Of a DNA stretch of 5,260 bases, positions 1 through 5,260 are shown piece by piece; positions within the stretch are counted from its first letter, which is position 1, and every line of letters begins with the position of its first letter. Position numbers and translations under genes: made by a program. Under the pieces are notes generated by a model. It was not told where the DNA came from. It saw only the letters and a list, made by a program, of their open reading frames with translations, and ran no database searches. Where the stretch lies: the IMG/VR virus record IMGVR_UViG_2877285697_000002, positions 1 through 5,260 of that record; one strand, written 5' to 3'. The DNA is from a virus. Taxonomy: Duplodnaviria; Heunggongvirae; Uroviricota; Caudoviricetes.

Positions 1-210
1 AACCGTCCTCCGTATCCTGTCATACGCGTAAAACAGCCAGCGCTGACGTGATTTAGCACCGACGTAGCCCCACTGTTCGTCCATTTCAGCGCAGACAATC
101 ACATCACTGCCCGGTTGTATGCGCGAGGTTACCGACTGCGGCCTGAGTTTTTTAAGTGACGTAAAACCGTGTTGAGGCCAACGCCCATAATGCGTGCACT
201 GGCGCGACAT
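1..210 (-). CDS. insB: IS1 InsB (transposase catalytic part), 5' portion only; runs off the window edge. Normally expressed as InsAB' by a -1 frameshift.
   Basis: Minus-strand frame starting at the ATG at 210 translates [64 protein letters not shown]..., matching IS1 InsB. Overlaps the insA 3' end with the A6C slippery motif. Confidence 0.85.
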
Positions 211-404
211 CCGACGCCATTCATGGCCATATCAATGATTTTCTGGTGCGTACCGGGCTGAGAGGCGGTGTAAGTGAACTGTAGTTGCCATGTTTTACGG
301 CAATGAGAGCAGAGATAGCGCTGATGTCCGGCAGTGCTTTTGCCGTTACGCACCACGCCTTCAGTAGCGGAGCAGGAAGGACATCTGATGGAAATGGAAG
401 CCAC
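129..404 (-). CDS. insA: IS1 InsA (transposition regulator, N-terminal part of the InsAB' transposase)
   Basis: 91-aa translation [43 protein letters not shown]... is near-identical to IS1 InsA as I remember it, with a few substitutions (iso-IS1 variant). Includes the zinc-finger-like CPSC...CSHC motif. Confidence 0.92.
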
Positions 405-459
405 GCAAGCACCTTAAAATCACCATCATACACTAAATCAGTAAGTTGGCAGCATTACC

Positions 460-912
460 TGATTCGATATCCTTTTTCCTGGCTTCAAGTTTTTGTTGCA
501 ATGCGCAGATTTCATGAAACCTTTTTGTTATTTCGTGTTCTGCGCTAAACATGCATTTATCTCTGGTCGGAGTAGGGAGCAATATATCTTCGCCGTTGCC
601 GTCTTTCCCATATGAATACCATCCAACCCTTCTGCCAGATACAGTCAGATAAATTGAAGTAGAACGAATATCGCATGAGTAAAATGAACATCCCATCTTT
701 TCAAGTTCTTCACTTATAGCTACCAACTTGGATGATAACTGATCCACTTCCTCAGTTTTCTTCTTCCCGCCAAACGCAACAACTCTGGCGTCAAGTGCAA
801 GCTGGTTCTTTAGCTTTGTTACTTCTTCAAGTTCAGTGAACACCCCGGACTTAATTAAAGCGTTGCGTGCTATTACTTCTTTTATTCTCGTTGTTAAGCG
901 GATTGATGACAT
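460..912 (-). pseudogene. Hypothetical prophage early-left operon protein, apparently interrupted at its 3' end by IS1. The open frame continues 8 codons into the IS1 inverted repeat before stopping at 433.
   Basis: ORF-track frame 433..927; the likely true start is the ATG at 912 (MSSIRLTTRIKEV...), preceded by GAGAGG 6 nt upstream. The reading frame crosses the IS1 boundary at 459/460. No family recognised; the sequence is charged and looks coiled-coil-like. Confidence 0.5.
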
Positions 913-973
913 ATTAATTCCTCTCAAATAAGTGGTTTGCTACCTAATTTCATTTTCTGGCGACCAACACAAG

Positions 974-1357
974 TCATCTTGCTGTCAGCTGTTTTGATTT
1001 CCGGTAGCCTGCCGCGTAAATGGCTACGTTTGGAAGACATACACCAGTTTCTGGTTGCTTATGTCCAAACTCATTCGCGTACACAATGGCCGCTCGCTCC
1101 AGATTGCGTCTGTATTCTTTCTGTTGCCAGATCACGTCCTGTGCCATGAACTTAATTGGCTTAGCGTCTTCTATGCGCTCAGGCGTTTCGTGAGTACCTT
1201 TAGCCTGAATCTGCGCTCTGCTTAGAGTAGGGCGGTGTAATACTTCTGAACTTATTGCTTCTTCGCGGGCCAGCACGCCGTTAGCTAATGCCTTTGCCTT
1301 TAAACGCTCACGACGACGAGAACGTGAATTGCCTTTGAACTGAGTTCTGCGTGTCAT
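974..1357 (-). CDS. N: N-like transcription antitermination protein (P22 gene 24 / lambda N family)
   Basis: N-terminal arginine-rich motif (GNSRSRRRERLKAKALANG) and C-terminus ...VAIYAAGYRKSKQLTAR resemble P22 gp24 (...VALYAAGHRKSKQITAR, from memory). Strong SD AGGAGG 4-5 nt upstream of the ATG at 1357. Sits downstream of a boxB hairpin and to the left of the repressor gene, as in lambda and P22. Confidence 0.75.
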   Translation of the reverse strand: MTRRTQFKGNSRSRRRERLKAKALANGVLAREEAISSEVLHRPTLSRAQIQAKGTHETPERIEDAKPIKFMAQDVIWQQKEYRRNLERAAIVYANEFGHKQPETGVCLPNVAIYAAGYRKSKQLTAR

Positions 1358-1522
1358 ATAGACCTCCTGATGAACTTTGGTGGTGTGGTAGGTGGGAGAC
1401 CCATTTTGACCTGTTTCGGCCTACTTCAATTCGGCAATAGTCCCGCAGGCCTCGCCGCTTTACGTGCGACATATTCCCGTCCATGAACCCTTCACCACAC
1501 CCCAAAGTTCACTTTGGTTATT

Positions 1523-1537
1523 GCGCTTTGTCAGCGC
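1523..1537 (-). promoter_or_regulatory. nutL boxB RNA hairpin (N-utilisation site)
   Basis: Minus strand reads GCGCTGACAAAGCGC: a 5-bp stem (GCGCU/AGCGC) with loop GACAA, matching P22 boxB as I recall it. Lies about 165 nt upstream of the N start. Not followed by a U-tract, so not a terminator. No convincing boxA found nearby. Confidence 0.6.
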
Positions 1538-1599
1538 CGTAGATTCATATTCGAATCGTTGTATATTCACCGCCCTGGTGAGTAGTGCGTCCTGCTGAT

Positions 1600-1710
1600 G
1601 GCTTAAAGATAATCTAGGTTATAGTGGTGGTCAATAACTTAATTTATGGATTCTGATAAATAAGTTATAAGTGATGGATAATAAAGGTATTTTATTTTTG
1701 TAAATGTTGC
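1600..1710 (-). promoter_or_regulatory. Putative OL/PL early-left promoter and operator region
   Basis: Candidate leftward promoter: -35 TTGACC (complement of 1629-1634), 17-bp spacer, -10 TATCTT (complement of 1606-1611). Shares motifs with the cI-cro intergenic region: GGTTAT-N11-ATAACTT at 1617-1640 versus 4016-4039; GTTATAAGTGATGG at 1664-1677 versus GTTATAAGTAATGG at 4052-4065; ATAATAAAGGT at 1680-1690 versus 4010-4020. Promoter hexamers assigned by eye only. Confidence 0.4.
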
Positions 1711-1813
1711 GGATTGGTCGGTATTGGAAGGGGGGCGCTGTATTGCTGGCGTGTTGGTTCGTGGTTTACCGCATTTGCGGCTGTTAAATATGGGGGACGA
1801 TCGCGAGGCAAAG

Positions 1814-1843
1814 AAAACCCGGCGCGGAAGCCGGGTTTGAGAT
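1814..1843 (-). terminator. Rho-independent terminator, bidirectional in shape and stronger for leftward transcription
   Basis: Stem CCCGGC (1818-1823) / GCCGGG (1830-1835) with a 6-nt loop. On the minus strand it is followed by TTTTCTTTG; on the plus strand by TTTGAGATTT. Confidence 0.5.
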
Positions 1844-1853
1844 TTAGTTATTT

Positions 1854-1988
1854 TCAGCAGCTCGGATAAGAGCGGAAGTGCTGACGAACATGTTCGAGCT
1901 CACCGAAACGTATGCGGCAGTAACTGCGCACATAAACCGGCTTGTCGTGTTCGTAGATGAAGTCATCGCGATTAACATCGTGAGCCAT
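1854..1988 (-). CDS. Possible small protein (44 aa), hypothetical
   Basis: Minus-strand ORF ATG(1988)...TGA(1854-1856) encoding MAHDVNRDDFIYEHDKPVYVRSYCRIRFGELEHVRQHFRSYPSC, with SD AGGAGA 6 nt upstream. Ends about 20 nt before the terminator at 1818-1835. Below the ORF-track size cut-off; no homology recognised. Confidence 0.3.
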   Translation of the reverse strand: MAHDVNRDDFIYEHDKPVYVRSYCRIRFGELEHVRQHFRSYPSC

Positions 1989-2014
1989 AGCTTTTCTCCT
2001 GTTTTTGTATACAG

Positions 2015-2133
2015 CCTGTTTACCCGAACAGGTTGTAGTTTGTTGGGAGAACCGCTATCCTTGGCTTGCGGTTGCCAAGGGTGTAGCGGTAGGTAATCCT
2101 CCATACACTTCGGAAATACTGGATATATTTCCG
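2015..2133 (-). other. Cluster of three stable stem-loops in a non-coding stretch (possible structured RNA or leader)
   Basis: Perfect inverted repeats: CCTGTT-tacccg-AACAGG (2015-2032); CCTTGGC-ttgcggtt-GCCAAGG (2059-2080); CGGAAATA-ctggata-TATTTCCG (2111-2133). None has a clear U-tract. Confidence 0.4.
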
Positions 2134-2136
2134 ACC

Positions 2137-2160
2137 CAAAAAGCCCCGTTCCCTCGGGGC
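2137..2160 (-). terminator. Rho-independent terminator immediately after the stop of the 177-aa gene
   Basis: GCCCCG (2143-2148), loop TTCCCT, CGGGGC (2155-2160). Minus-strand transcript reads GCCCCGagggaaCGGGGCTTTTTGGG. The stop codon of the upstream gene is at 2162-2164. Confidence 0.7.
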
Positions 2161-2161
2161 T

Positions 2162-2695
2162 TTATTCTTTTGTTCCGCCATCAATCATCGCAAAAGATTC
2201 CACAATCAGACTGATACGCTTGGCTTCATCTTTTGTCAGGTCGCGAGGCAGGTTGCCAATGGTGACGATAAGATCTCCGCGCAATGGAATCGGCAGTTCA
2301 AATGTTTTTACACCAACCTGTACGTCAGTTACCGCCTTCTTCTTAGGTGCCATCTTTTTACGCTCCTTTTTTTTATTTACATCACCAACTGACACATTAA
2401 TCTCACCATTCTGGTAGGAGATAAATTTATCAATAGCACTTTGCATCCGGCTTTTGTATGCCTGCAAAGATGATTCAGAGGGTTTGCTTTCTGCTGAGTC
2501 TGCGTACGAACTTGCTAAGTTGGCAACGCTATAATCACGGATATCGGCATCGGTGAAATCCGACCCAAGAACAGTAAGAAGGCGCAGGGAAGAGTCACGG
2601 AGATTGCGGGCTGTAGCATCATTGACGATACCAAGCTCAGGAAGCATCTGTAAGAAGTCCTGAAATGCTTTGATGGTGTAGCTTTTGGTTTGCAT
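2162..2695 (-). CDS. Hypothetical protein, 177 aa, unknown function; accessory (moron-like) gene in the rexAB-equivalent position
   Basis: Uninterrupted ORF with its own terminator. Contains a lysine-rich linker (KKKERKKMAPKKK) between two predicted domains. No family recognised from memory. The start codon at 2695 is immediately preceded by a hairpin and T-tract, with the only SD-like GAGG inside the hairpin arm. An alternative internal start (Met17, near 2647) cannot be excluded. Confidence 0.65.
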   Translation of the reverse strand: MQTKSYTIKAFQDFLQMLPELGIVNDATARNLRDSSLRLLTVLGSDFTDADIRDYSVANLASSYADSAESKPSESSLQAYKSRMQSAIDKFISYQNGEINVSVGDVNKKKERKKMAPKKKAVTDVQVGVKTFELPIPLRGDLIVTIGNLPRDLTKDEAKRISLIVESFAMIDGGTKE

Positions 2696-2722
2696 AAAAA
2701 AGCCTCATACAGTTGATGAGGC
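2696..2722 (-). terminator. Hairpin plus U6 tract directly abutting the ATG of the 177-aa gene; candidate terminator/attenuator that sequesters the SD
   Basis: Minus strand reads GCCTCAT-caactgt-ATGAGGC-TTTTTT-ATG. The 7-bp stem 2702-2722 contains GAGG 7 nt upstream of the start codon. Confidence 0.5.
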
Positions 2723-2884
2723 AATACTAATTTGATCGTCAAAACAAATCAAGACCCAAGAAACAATCGTTGATTCCTTTCTTTGTGACAATACAGTCAA
2801 ATCAAGTTTTACAAGGATTACTTTTCTTCGATTACATTAAAGGCCGCACTTCTGCGACCATCCATCACCAAAATGTCTCTTCAC

Positions 2885-3226
2885 TCATCCGAAGAAGCAG
2901 CAATCCGGGTCAGCACGCACAAGCTCAAGCGCATCAGTCAGCGAAAGTTCAGTACTGTACTGATGCCATTTCATATCCTTCCGCATCCAATAGATTTTCC
3001 ATCTATCCAGAGAACGTATGTACTTGATTCTTGCTGATGGCAGGATGTTTGTTTCACCTGGGTTGCCCTGCCACACGGGGCGCTGTTCGCCGATATCTAT
3101 CGTTTGGTCATTGATGCTATAAACAATATCCAGTTCATTGCGGATATGTTCAGGCGGCCTTATGCTTTCAATGAATTGGTGAACTTCTTTTTTGACCGCT
3201 TGATATTCAAGGTCAGTGAACGCCAT
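2885..3226 (-). CDS. DUF3024-like small protein (113 aa), unknown function; immediately downstream of the repressor gene and probably co-transcribed with it
   Basis: Translation contains ...RPPEHIRNELDIVY...WKIYWMRKDMKWHQY...CCFFG, which resembles the conserved core of DUF3024 family proteins as I recall them (RPP.H.R..L...Y, W.LYWMRRDLKWH.Y, terminal FFG). SD GAGGAGG 4 nt upstream of the ATG at 3226. Only 37 bp from the repressor stop codon. Confidence 0.75.
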   Translation of the reverse strand: MAFTDLEYQAVKKEVHQFIESIRPPEHIRNELDIVYSINDQTIDIGEQRPVWQGNPGETNILPSARIKYIRSLDRWKIYWMRKDMKWHQYSTELSLTDALELVRADPDCCFFG

Positions 3227-3263
3227 CTATCCTCCTCACCCAAACGTTTCTTCAGGCCACTGG

Positions 3264-3971
3264 TTACCAGCTATGCGATGACCAGAATACTCTGCCAATA
3301 ATCCTTACGGTTTTATGAAATTCATCTCTATCCATTACTTCATCCGGGTACTCTTCGCGATTTATTGATCTGATTATCACCGATGTAGGAGTGGCGATTA
3401 ATGTTTTTACTCGCAACAAATCAGACTGGCAAATAGCGTAGGTTTTACCATCTCTGATGGTGGTATCTTGTGTGTTAACACCAACAACATCGCCATCGTG
3501 AAGAGTTGGTTCCATGCTTTGACCTGTTACCCTTACCAGCTTGGCAGAACTTTCAGTTACCCCCATCTTTTTCAGATAGTACTTTCTGAAAACCAAAGAG
3601 AACTCTGATGATTCTTCTATCTCGCAGCTACCGCTTCCAGCCGAAAACGAAACGTTAAGAAGAGGCAATGCGACAAACTCGTCATCGTTTTTTTTAATGT
3701 CTTCCCATACCACAGCTTTTAAAGATGACTCACGGATATTGGATGGTTCTTCATGTGTACCATCCCTCATTTCACCAATACCAGAACTAAGCCATTCAGG
3801 GCGTACTTTTAAAGCATTAGCTAACTCAACCATCTTGCGAGATCCGTTTGTTTTACCGGATGACATCTTCTGTATGGCTGGCTGAGATATTCCAACCATG
3901 TCCGCAAGCTGTGATTGCGACACCCCTGCCGATCTCATGGCTGCATTTAGTCTTTCTGCGAATGTTTTCAT
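3264..3971 (-). CDS. cI: CI-like prophage repressor: N-terminal XRE-type HTH plus C-terminal S24 (LexA-like) autopeptidase domain
   Basis: HTH: QSQLADMVGISQPAIQKMSSGK. S24 signature GQSMEPTL (catalytic Ser) with a downstream LRVKTL (catalytic Lys). Candidate Ala-Gly cleavage site in FSAGSG. Divergent from a cro-like gene across an operator region. The start is placed at ATG 3971 (MKTFAERL...); the ORF-track TTG at 4001 has no SD and is judged less likely. Confidence 0.85.
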   Translation of the reverse strand: MKTFAERLNAAMRSAGVSQSQLADMVGISQPAIQKMSSGKTNGSRKMVELANALKVRPEWLSSGIGEMRDGTHEEPSNIRESSLKAVVWEDIKKNDDEFVALPLLNVSFSAGSGSCEIEESSEFSLVFRKYYLKKMGVTESSAKLVRVTGQSMEPTLHDGDVVGVNTQDTTIRDGKTYAICQSDLLRVKTLIATPTSVIIRSINREEYPDEVMDRDEFHKTVRIIGRVFWSSHSW

Positions 3972-4082
3972 ATCCACAAATCTATAACTACGGTTATCCA
4001 AAGTAAAATAATAAAGGTTATTGCTATTTTTTATAACTTGGGTTATCCTTGGTTATAAGTAATGGCTGAAAGAGGTATGCTC
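3972..4082. promoter_or_regulatory. OR-like divergent promoter/operator region (PRM leftward, PR rightward) with repeated GGTTAT/ATAAC half-sites
   Basis: Half-sites: ATAAC-n4-GTTATCC at 3984-4000 and 4033-4049; GGTTAT-N11-ATAAC at 4016-4037; GGTTATAAGTAATGG at 4051-4065. Candidate PR: -35 TTGCTA (4021-4026), 17-bp spacer, -10 TATCCT (4044-4049). Exact promoter elements not resolved. Confidence 0.6.
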
Positions 4083-4307
4083 ATGAATTTAGTAATTCAA
4101 CGAGCCTTGAAGATTGTCGGTAGTCAAAAGCGGCTTGCCGACAAGTGTGGTGTAACGCAGCCAGCAGTACACAAATGGCGGAAAGGCGGGCAGGTTTCTC
4201 CAGAGAAAGTTACCGCCATCGTTAACGCCACTGGAGGGCAGATCAAGGCTTACGAAATTCGCCCAGATTTACCACACCTGTTTCCAAAACCGAATCAGGC
4301 AGCATAA
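4083..4307 (+). CDS. cro: Cro-like small HTH regulator (Cro/YdaS-type)
   Basis: 74 aa from ATG 4083 with SD AGAGG (4071-4075) 7 nt upstream. HTH-like QKRLADKCGVTQPAVHKWRKGG. Divergent from the repressor gene; small size and position are typical of Cro. Confidence 0.8.
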   Translation: MNLVIQRALKIVGSQKRLADKCGVTQPAVHKWRKGGQVSPEKVTAIVNATGGQIKAYEIRPDLPHLFPKPNQAA

Positions 4308-4314
4308 GTAACAC

Positions 4315-4360
4315 CGCTATTTTCACAATGGGCATTCGTCCTACGTCGCTGACAAAGCGA
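4315..4360 (+). promoter_or_regulatory. nutR-like site: boxA-like CGCTATTTT followed by a boxB hairpin
   Basis: boxA-like 4315-4323 (CGCTATTTT versus consensus CGCTCTTTA). boxB 4346-4360 TCGCTGACAAAGCGA: 5-bp stem with loop GACAA, the same loop as the nutL boxB at 1523-1537. Located between cro and cII, as in lambda. Confidence 0.55.
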
Positions 4361-4445
4361 GTTCCAAGATATCTGACCAACTAAGGCCATATGCGTTTCC
4401 ATGCATACCTTTCAACTAACTATTCACTATTGGAAATCTTAAGAA

Positions 4446-4745
4446 ATGGAACAAACAAGTTACAGCAAACTATCACAGCGCGATGTTGATCGCGCAGAAA
4501 CAGATTTACTCATCAACCTGTCAACGCTTACCCAGCGCGGTCTGGCAAAGATGATTGGCTGTCATGAATCGAAGATAAGCAGAACGGACTGGAGATTTAT
4601 TGCTTCGGTCTTGTGTGCTTTCGGAATGGCATCAGACATCAGTCCGATTAGCAGGGCTTTTAAGTATGCGCTTGATGGACTCACCAATAAAAAACGCCCG
4701 GTGTGCAAGACCGAGCGTTCTGATCAAATACAAATGGAATTCTGA
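4446..4745 (+). CDS. cII: CII-like transcriptional activator (lambda CII family)
   Basis: C-terminus ...LTNKKRPVCKTERSDQIQMEF closely matches lambda CII ...LTNKKRPAATERSEQIQMEF (from memory). HTH region KMIGCHESKISRTDW aligns with lambda AVGVDKSQISRWKRDW. Position right of cro matches. Confidence 0.88.
   Translation: MEQTSYSKLSQRDVDRAETDLLINLSTLTQRGLAKMIGCHESKISRTDWRFIASVLCAFGMASDISPISRAFKYALDGLTNKKRPVCKTERSDQIQMEF
4455..4468 (-). promoter_or_regulatory. Candidate CII-binding site / PRE -35 region (TTGC-N6-TTGT on the minus strand)
   Basis: Complement of 4455-4468 reads TTGCtgtaacTTGT, one mismatch from the TTGC-N6-TTGC CII recognition repeat. Lies in the 5' end of cII and is oriented leftward, as in lambda PRE. 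Confidence 0.35.
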
Positions 4746-4777
4746 GGTCATTACTGGATCTATCAACAGGAGTAATT

Positions 4778-5260
4778 ATGACATACGAAAATGACAAATT
4801 CCAGGTTCTGAAGAGCATGAAGGTGCCAGATGATTTTAAATCAAATGGCTTTGTTTATGTGCTTTCGAATGAGTGCATGCCAGGAATTTATAAGATTGGG
4901 ATGACTAAGCATTCACCAGAAGTTAGGGCTAAAGAAATTTCAGCCTCTACTGGCGTTCCTAAGCCATTTAAGGTGATAGCAGCCTTTCATTCAAATAATC
5001 CCGCATCAGATGAAAAACTCATTCATAAAGCCTTTGCAAAAGAGAGGCTTAGTGATAATCGAGAGTTTTTCAAGCTTGAAGATAATGATCTTTCTGAATC
5101 TCTAAATGAAATAAGGGCGCTGGTTGGCCCTGAAAGAAATGGCGAGACGGCAGAATACGCAATTTACGACTCATTCATTTCTTTTCGCCATGAAAATGAG
5201 CTTGATCTTAATGAGGAGCTTATAGAGCAAGGTCTGGGTAGTGTAGTTGGTCTGAGGTAG
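4778..5260 (+). CDS. T5orf172 / GIY-YIG-like domain protein (160 aa); putative nuclease-fold accessory protein
   Basis: N-terminal region GFVYVLSNECMPGIYKIGMTKHSPEVRAKEIS...FKVIAAFH...REFFK fits the T5orf172 (MUG113) / GIY-YIG pattern as I recall it (YVL.N...KIG.T...R..E...H..FF). SD AGGAG 6 nt upstream of the ATG at 4778. Stop codon TAG at 5258-5260. Confidence 0.7.
   Translation: MTYENDKFQVLKSMKVPDDFKSNGFVYVLSNECMPGIYKIGMTKHSPEVRAKEISASTGVPKPFKVIAAFHSNNPASDEKLIHKAFAKERLSDNREFFKLEDNDLSESLNEIRALVGPERNGETAEYAIYDSFISFRHENELDLNEELIEQGLGSVVGLR

Follow-up and report, generated by a model that had tools for sequence, protein, structure and literature searches.

In type I toxin-antitoxin loci such as tisB/istR-1, zorO/orzO, shoB/ohsC, and hok/sok, a toxin gene with a structured 5′ untranslated region (UTR) is paired with a small RNA encoded divergently or in antisense. 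The rpsU-dnaG-rpoD operon combines an internal attenuating terminator with poor translation initiation, the maturation-gene leader of phage MS2 occludes its Shine-Dalgarno (SD) sequence over a long distance by means of an upstream complement, and lambda cIII mRNA can adopt alternative structures. In phage lambda, the tImm terminator follows rexB. The locus compared with these systems here is the spacer between two minus-strand genes, termed A and B, in a 5,260-nucleotide (nt) stretch of DNA (the window) from a virus of the Caudoviricetes (IMG/VR record IMGVR_UViG_2877285697_000002, positions 1 to 5,260). A sequence-only reading had noted four consecutive stem-loops in this spacer, for which it considered a structured non-coding RNA, a leader for the small open reading frame (ORF) at 1854-1988, protein-binding palindromes, or a transcriptional insulator. 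On balance, our analysis favors a conserved regulatory spacer that belongs to a mobile two-gene prophage cassette and comprises a terminator, a folded leader, and a convergent antisense RNA.

All four inverted repeats are present at the positions first given for them, and they are termed hairpins T, H2, H3, and H4 in the direction of minus-strand transcription (Table 1). Three additional pairings emerged from the inverted repeats and the minimum free energy (MFE) fold, namely an outer helix of H3, a long-range helix (LR) that encloses H4, and a fifth hairpin, H2b. On the minus strand, H2b holds an SD-like GGAGG and competes with the H3 outer helix. The density of structure had been considered unusual for a simple intergenic spacer, and it is clearly not a product of chance. 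The minus-strand MFE of the 182-nt spacer is −70.3 kcal/mol as against −44.6 ± 4.3 kcal/mol for 200 dinucleotide shuffles (z = −6.05), and the plus strand folds slightly better (z = −7.19), with 0/200 shuffles as stable on either strand.

The palindromes are also conserved in related prophages, where their stems covary. Covariation was assessed in 13 distinct variants of the spacer, all with the leader type of the window (a 9-sequence version was also run); the formal count covered T, H2, LR, and H4, and the controls had pairing partners slid by 1–3 columns. Standard pairs occupied 85.8% of cells as against 39–47% with slid partners, and both sides had changed in 10 pairs versus 5.3 expected, a count reached in 0/500 shuffles. 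Compensation in the H2 stem runs through GGAAATA/TATTTCC, GGGAATA/TATTCCC, GGAAGTTT/AAACTTCC, and GAAGAGA/TCTCTTC across the variants. The stem of T is invariant in 12/13 variants and carries a compensatory C-G to U-A change in the other, with loops that vary. Five LR pairs have changed on both sides, H4 pair 139-156 occurs as four standard pair types (CG, GC, AU, and GU), and H4 and LR change in step across the variants. The inner stem of H3 is replaced wholesale in homologs and is always a hairpin (TCTATGTCT/AGACGTAGA, CCACTAA/TTAGAGG, or CTAAG/CTTAG), while its outer helix is 91.7% paired and contains one covarying pair (CG:7, UA:4). Outside the formal count, H2b shows an AGG/CCU to GGG/CCC change in the Symbiopectobacterium locus (L029; the loci compared carry L numbers). 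A pattern search of IMG/VR for H2 returned 14 loci, all identical to the window except for single-base differences, so that they added no diversity to the comparison.

An Rfam scan, which might have tied the spacer to a known element, made no such assignment: there were 0 matches at E ≤ 1 on either window strand, and 20 related loci searched at the gathering threshold yielded only tRNAs. Nor was a riboswitch-like conserved unpaired core evident in the spacer. The four stem-loops are described here as a predicted functional RNA structure within the A-B regulatory spacer, and it is very probable that this RNA structure is conserved and selected and that it serves gene B.

Two observations on other lineages concern the same hairpins. 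The spacer of L029 is ~28 nt longer than that of the window, and ~30 nt of its H3 region copy the 5′ end of the small ORF (CATGATGTAAATCGCGACGATTTCATCTA), probably as a recombination scar. In spacers of the Sakai type, the center of the first long hairpin (L003, ~3040-3075, compared with L155 and L121) has opposite orientations in different lineages (ATGTCCAACTCCCCAGTCCGACAT versus ATGTCAGACTGGGGAGTTGGACAT), as if it had inverted between the two palindrome arms.

The first functional element of the spacer is hairpin T. The features of an intrinsic terminator are present at 2140-2163, where a U-tract follows directly on a 9-bp stem, 6 pairs of which are G-C, and, as had been noted, T is the only one of the four hairpins with a U-tract on the minus strand (GGGGCUUUUUGGG). 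Because this minus-strand tail (UUUUUGGG, U5) is matched by a T-rich tail on the plus strand (UUUAUUCUUUU), T is a predicted bidirectional intrinsic terminator. The plus-strand tail holds 6–7 T of 8 in 10/10 variants and the minus-strand tail 3–6. In Klebsiella-type spacers, the GAATAA that supplies the plus-strand T tail is conserved despite lying past the gene A stop codon.

A second element is the leader of gene B. The suggestion that the stem-loops belong to a leader for the small ORF has gained support on several counts. Gene B is a real conserved gene, with a PHROG family match (phrog_21154, E 1.9e-31) and a strong AGGAG SD; gene and spacer occur together; and a helix that shows covariation joins the spacer to the SD and AUG of B. 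This helix, LR, covers the SD (GGAGAA, 1999..1994) and the first two bases of the AUG (1988..1986), and the SD and anti-SD co-vary as GGAG:CUCC, GGUA:UACC, GGUU:GGCC, and GGAU:AUCC. The UAGCGGU segment can pair downstream, which closes the start site, or upstream, in the H3 outer helix. The resulting two conformers lie 0.9–7.7 kcal/mol apart in 9 homologs and less than 3 kcal/mol apart in 5.

To gauge accessibility of the ribosome site, the probability that positions −16 to +3 are unpaired was set against a control in which the upstream sequence was shuffled. Window-type leaders gave 0.42 versus 0.60 when shuffled, with 4/60 shuffles as low, and Sakai-type leaders gave 0.28 versus 0.55 (0/60 as low), while Klebsiella-type leaders, at 0.51 versus 0.36, were not lower. 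In the window, both LR covariation and accessibility thus point to a structured 5′ UTR that hides the ribosome site, a property that not every homolog shares. Occlusion as a family-wide feature was considered and rejected, the median accessibility being 0.40 versus 0.42 for shuffles and the effect being confined to the window and Sakai types. In these folding models, occlusion is real for the window and not a universal property. A conserved sense-strand promoter was not detected in the spacer, where the best window score was 2.5 bits.

A third element is a predicted antisense promoter, P_as, that lies on the plus strand ~45 nt upstream of the gene B AUG and points away from the gene. Its TTG and TA...T positions are invariant in the 13 variants. 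Across leader classes, the motif TTGnnn-17-TAnnnT recurs with its −35 element 33–46 nt upstream of the small ORF AUG. It takes the forms TTG(T/C)..-17-TAT(C/T)CT, TTGA(A/T)A-17-TAA(G/T)GT, and TTGCTT or TTGATT-17-TATCGT or TATTGT in three mutually unalignable enterobacterial leader types, and it occurs in 7/14 distant metagenomic leader classes. With one representative per class and an interval of −15 to −60, the motif was found in 10/17 independent leader classes versus 0.97 expected (Poisson-binomial P ~1e-9); on the sense strand, the mirror test yields 3.

Since P_as is followed on the plus strand by the hairpin T terminator, an antisense RNA of ~100 nt is predicted, and the opposite-strand promoter probably makes such an RNA. 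In the window, the predicted RNA at 2068-2174 folds as three hairpins plus a U-rich tail. Its predicted length is 92–103 nt in 7/8 enterobacterial variants with a predicted terminator and 131 nt in L029, where the spacer has an insertion; the distant loci L090, L096, L097, and L098 give 88–100 nt. The idea of a structured non-coding RNA in the spacer is therefore probably right, with the correction that the conserved promoter and terminator place it on the opposite (plus) strand. The prophage small RNAs known from the literature that were compared map elsewhere: svsR at the cI 3′ end, AgvB and AsxR at the PR′ moron site, and the Pas small RNAs in the late region. A literature search found nothing on the A-B spacer. 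One further feature of this strand is that H4 at 2010-2037 forms a 12-bp stem with G-U pairs followed by GUUUGUU and is thus terminator-like; it lies directly upstream of the predicted antisense promoter.

These elements suggest how the cassette might work. It would be read in the order P_A (the module promoter), gene A (177 amino acids), spacer, gene B (44 amino acids), and terminator. Hairpin T would attenuate transcripts from P_A before they reach B and would also end the convergent RNA from the opposite strand. Sense transcripts that pass T would fold into H2, H3, and H4, and LR would lock the SD and AUG of B against the upstream anti-SD, leading to low translation of B; the anti-SD segment could instead pair further upstream, in the H3 outer helix, to give a second conformer of similar energy. 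From the plus strand, the σ70-type P_as would produce an antisense RNA of ~100 nt (H2b, H2, and T) that complements in full the upstream half of any long, read-through B leader. Such a logic resembles, by analogy, that of type I toxin-antitoxin and other antisense-controlled small-gene loci, and a type-I-toxin-antitoxin-like, RNA-regulated small-gene cassette is the best reading at hand, one that we hold with modest confidence. It supposes that B would be harmful if over-expressed and that its repression may be relieved, and it agrees with where the cassette lies, among genes that the prophage expresses during lysogeny. Membership in the type I class is not established.

A more ambitious version, which we consider doubtful, would make the spacer the RNA core of a new and widespread three-part, type-I-like toxin-antitoxin or abortive-infection module. 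The parts would be a partner protein (phrog_2602 in enterobacterial prophages and a protein of 238–276 amino acids in at least four distant metagenomic loci), the convergent antisense RNA of ~100 nt, and an arginine-rich protein of 30–50 amino acids. Expression would come from prophage immunity regions, and the small protein would be released when synthesis of the short-lived antisense RNA stops.

Several points weigh against the cassette model as a whole. The covariation rests on 13 sequences from few lineages and so on few independent events, and the shuffle ignores relatedness. Counts of G-U and A-C pairs are balanced (12 versus 13, and also per helix), which leaves the strands indistinguishable; an argument from wobble pairs for the sense strand was dropped for that reason. 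Occlusion is not universal, as Klebsiella-type sites are no less accessible than shuffles and distant members are mixed. The interval of the motif enrichment test was chosen after the data had been seen. In addition, the predicted RNA is not complementary to the ribosome site of B beyond chance in 13/14 loci. A general pairing in trans with that site was therefore rejected, as it was no better than in shuffles with the exception of the Klebsiella type (z = −2), and full complementarity to the leader holds only if the B mRNA starts upstream of 2068.

The alternative that survives best, although it is rather unlikely, is a purely cis-acting intercistronic leader in which the hairpins serve the minus-strand mRNA only and the antisense promoter motif is non-functional. 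An internal attenuator, stabilizing or Rho-blocking stem-loops, and occlusion of the ribosome site would then combine to give a low B:A ratio. Such a leader accounts well for the covarying helix between the spacer and the B ribosome site and for a conserved module promoter that occurs only upstream of A. It also gains from the weakness of the window P_as, whose score of 8.9 bits is matched somewhere in 36% of shuffles and whose site is sub-threshold in a consensus promoter scan, and from the location of the invariant TTG and TA...T bases within conserved RNA helices, a second possible cause of their conservation. It does not, however, predict a promoter motif at the same position and spacing in 10/17 unalignable independent leader classes, plus-strand terminators ~90–100 nt downstream of that motif, or a U-tract at T that is consistently better on the plus strand.

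Less probable again is an independent small RNA gene on the plus strand that acts in trans on host or phage targets, with the minus-strand structures as a by-product. The promoter, three hairpins, and U-rich terminator predicted on the plus strand, together with its slightly better fold, would suit such a gene. Yet H4 and LR lie outside the predicted RNA and nevertheless covary with the B SD, the stems change sequence freely with no conserved single-stranded seed evident, and Rfam holds no match. Finally, DNA-level palindromes, whether as operators of a regulator (protein A, for example) or as joints where mobile gene modules recombine, are very improbable: homology of Yersinia phage YP3 to the window does stop inside the spacer (~2090), a Sakai-type leader does precede a different small ORF in L072, and the N-terminal domain of protein A is faintly (not significantly) integrase-N-terminal-like, but half-sites are unconserved, loop lengths vary, and stems are swapped for unrelated pairing sequences. 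Stems that exchange their sequence and still pair are a hallmark of RNA structure and indicate single-strand folding rather than protein recognition, and the protein-binding palindromes once proposed find no support.

The preferred reading, that of a mobile cassette, draws on the recurrence of the A-B pair. The two genes lie 158–201 nt apart, in most cases 163–174 nt, and prophage "moron" slots, including those of Escherichia, are the home of the pair. It is found beside SSB and primase genes in Klebsiella prophages, after dinI in Salmonella, and after a cI-type repressor in Serratia and other lambdoid prophages; it also occurs in lambdoid immunity regions, in Symbiopectobacterium, in Yersinia prophages, beside BstA genes, and on several IMG/VR contigs. 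Homologs of A of the Sakai and Oslo types (38–41% identity) have an unannotated B homolog ~173 nt downstream. Yersinia phage YP3 has kept gene A, terminator T, and H2 and has lost gene B, while L072 has kept a Sakai-type leader in front of a different small ORF. Behind the A homologs of Proteus L030 and of L050-L052, contigs identical to Yersinia pseudotuberculosis locus L188, a spacer alike in length and structure leads to still another small ORF. Since these loci keep the spacer without B, it is, by this distribution, an element that travels with gene A rather than with gene B. In L072, whose Sakai-type leader is kept, the start codon seems to be the point at which one ORF was exchanged for another.

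The ORFs that stand in the slot of B in L030, L050-L052, L187, and L072 are unrelated small ORFs, and each follows a structured spacer of ~150–170 nt. They include a protein of 57–58 amino acids (GYRW..CRYRK.RAKAGTPDSER..LDAH.YGYKCW) and a Cys-rich protein of 47 amino acids.

The gene B protein is charged, basic, hydrophilic, and arginine-rich, without a hydrophobic stretch, and its family shares the core V-x-V-x-x-Y-x-R-x-R-x-G-x-x-E-x-V-x-x-H-x-R-S-x-P. Searches of Pfam, NCBIfam, PADLOC, and PDB sequences gave no match that would indicate a function for either A or B. The family is widespread and unannotated, with members of 30–50 amino acids that carry a VFVRAY.R.RFG.LEHV.QHYRS.P core (loci L086-L130). 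Among distant members, which come from soil, gut, and other metagenomes, many have QL(S/E/K)LF-like C-terminal tails that we take to resemble beta-clamp-binding motifs. In VT2-Sakai (L003), a 40-amino-acid B homolog (MSTYNLNDQFDREVHVNAYERIRHGNLEHVCEHYRSRPHR) at 3196-3318 (+) is unannotated, and the annotation shows an opposite-strand GeneMark ORF instead. The counterpart of the spacer in Sp5 of O157 Sakai is located between the A homolog, VT2-Sap23, and N.

Upstream of gene A, the σ70-type P_A is conserved in most of 15 contexts, with VT2-Sakai (L003) unalignable. Two conserved motifs that contain CGATC occur in this region (2724-2790 (-); 15 loci), one in the −35/−10 spacer and the other ~20 nt upstream of the −35 element; they are Dam sites or possible operators. 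The AlphaFold model of protein A contains a confident four-helix N-terminal domain (pLDDT, the model's confidence score, ~90), and its matches to integrase N-terminal domains among PDB folds were not significant (E 0.4–0.7). In distant loci, a gene for 238–276 amino acids lies 158–332 nt upstream of the small ORF on the same strand. Four of these genes (L088 386-1162, L090 406-1221, L094 269-1099, and L092 112-828) are mutually alignable at 25–40% identity, and the L092 protein has a weak DUF5343 match. Their C-terminal motif FEVPIPG..VIVPDDLD.. resembles FELPIPLRG..VTI..LPRDLT of protein A. Homology between A and these proteins was tried and left unsupported by profile-profile comparison (hhalign probability 0.45%).

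Table 1. Window coordinates of the A-B spacer, its structural elements, and the surrounding genes
Feature	Position	Strand	Description
A-B spacer	between gene A (2162) and gene B (1988)	minus	173 nt; holds the four hairpins
Hairpin T	2140..2163 (core 2143-2160)	both	AAAGCCCCG-loop-CGGGGCTTT; core GCCCCG/CGGGGC, 9 bp when extended to 2140-2163; directly after gene A stop codon
Hairpin H2	2111-2133; 2110-2134		8 bp; 9 bp; TCGGAAATA-N7-TATTTCCGA
Hairpin H2b	2081-2108		fifth hairpin; in MFE folds of both strands
Hairpin H3, inner stem	2059-2080	minus	CCTTGGC/GCCAAGG, 7 bp
Hairpin H3, outer helix	2051-2057 with 2084-2090	minus	ACCGCUA (2090..2084) : UAGCGGU (2057..2051)
Hairpin H4	2015-2032 (core); 2010-2037 with one mismatch	minus	CCTGTT/AACAGG, 6 bp
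Long-range helix LR	1987..2058	minus	AUAGCGGUUCUCC (2058..2046) : GGAGAAAAGCUAU (1999..1987); 13 nt
Predicted antisense promoter P_as	2033..2061	plus	TTGTAG (2033-2038), 17 nt, TATCCT (2056-2061)
Predicted antisense RNA	2068..2172	plus	~100 nt; hairpins H2b, H2, T and U-rich 3′ tail; both ends predicted
Gene B	1988..1854	minus	44-amino-acid basic protein, phrog_21154
Gene B terminator, tImm-like	1815..1838	minus	inverted repeat; 91% identity to lambda 35782-35826
Gene A	2162..2695	minus	177 amino acids, phrog_2602; always upstream of spacer
Module promoter P_A	2702..2752 region	minus	TTGATT (2752..2747), 17 nt, TAGTAT (2729..2724)
5′ hairpin after P_A	2722..2702		3′ arm holds gene A SD; T6 follows hairpin
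DUF3024 / PDC-S43 gene	3226..2885	minus	terminator after gene at 2859..2842
cI	3971..3264	minus
Operator-like repeats and PL	~1600-1700
N-like antiterminator	1357..974	minus
Nmad5-domain gene	433-915		downstream of N; truncated by IS1

The window covers the immunity region of a Stx-phage-like prophage of the lambdoid kind and shares 98% identity with Escherichia phage SH2026Stx1 and 100% identity with two complete E. coli genomes. The spacer does lie upstream of PL, as had been assumed, in the position of the prophage "rex slot." The terminator at 1815-1838, between gene B and the operator-like repeats, is of the tImm type by both sequence and position, an assignment that concerns this flanking terminator and not the four hairpins. 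An insulator that shields PL from the lysogenic operon is borne out to the extent that two terminators (2140-2163 and 1815-1838) stand between the lysogenic transcripts and OL/PL, and then only in a trivial sense.

Candidate defense genes flank the immunity switch on both sides. The DUF3024 protein at 2885-3226 (-), which adjoins cI, matches the PADLOC candidate PDC-S43 (E 7e-42), and a T5orf172/MUG113-domain protein at 4778-5260 (+), after cII, matches PDC-S57 and PD-Lambda-1. An IS1 copy occupies 1-459 of the window (InsA, 404..129; inverted-repeat end, 459) and cuts the Nmad5-domain gene, while in locus L048 IS1 is inserted in the 3′ end of gene A instead.

The A-B pair and its spacer have no prior annotation, and prophage immunity regions are a known home of defense and lysogenic-conversion genes. 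The proposed reading would account for ~170 nt of highly structured DNA that annotation pipelines leave "empty." If it is true, the locus would offer a candidate family of regulatory RNAs, an antisense RNA that is probably new, and a widespread family of tightly controlled tiny proteins. Shiga-toxin phages as well as Klebsiella and Salmonella prophages would then conceivably hold candidates for a new mechanism of toxin-antitoxin action or phage exclusion.

Among known systems, type I toxin-antitoxin loci share with the cassette a small ORF of fewer than 60 amino acids, a long structured leader in which the ribosome-binding site is concealed, a location on prophage or mobile DNA, and an opposite-strand RNA gene of ~100 nt (predicted here) that lies just upstream of the ORF and has a promoter and an intrinsic terminator to itself. 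The likeness is weakened by the B protein itself, which is hydrophilic, basic, and arginine-rich, whereas classical type I toxins are membrane peptides. The cassette also differs in that its RNA has no complementarity to the ribosome site beyond chance and no Rfam match to a known antitoxin RNA, and in that B, for which no promoter of its own was found, stands behind a 177-amino-acid partner gene.

The rpsU-dnaG-rpoD operon is alike in having a terminator between co-oriented genes, one upstream promoter, and weak downstream translation, which together make the downstream product scarce. Unlike that operon, the A-B spacer has three more conserved hairpins, a covarying helix that occludes the SD, and a terminator in common with a candidate convergent RNA gene. 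With the leaders of MS2 and lambda cIII, the spacer has in common an SD and AUG that pair ~50 nt upstream across an enclosed hairpin and a competing pairing that gives two conformers, although the sequences are unrelated. In lambda, the rexA-rexB-tImm arrangement and the lit transcript occupy the same cI-OL/PL slot, and the final terminator of the cassette is 91% identical to tImm over 45 nt; the two sets of genes are not related, and nothing like the structured spacer or the antisense promoter is present at that position in lambda. As with the genes of the lambda rex slot, those of the cassette are probably expressed in the lysogen. The A-B spacer is thus likely to be a riboregulated small-gene leader, probably with an antisense RNA, of a kind already known from these systems.

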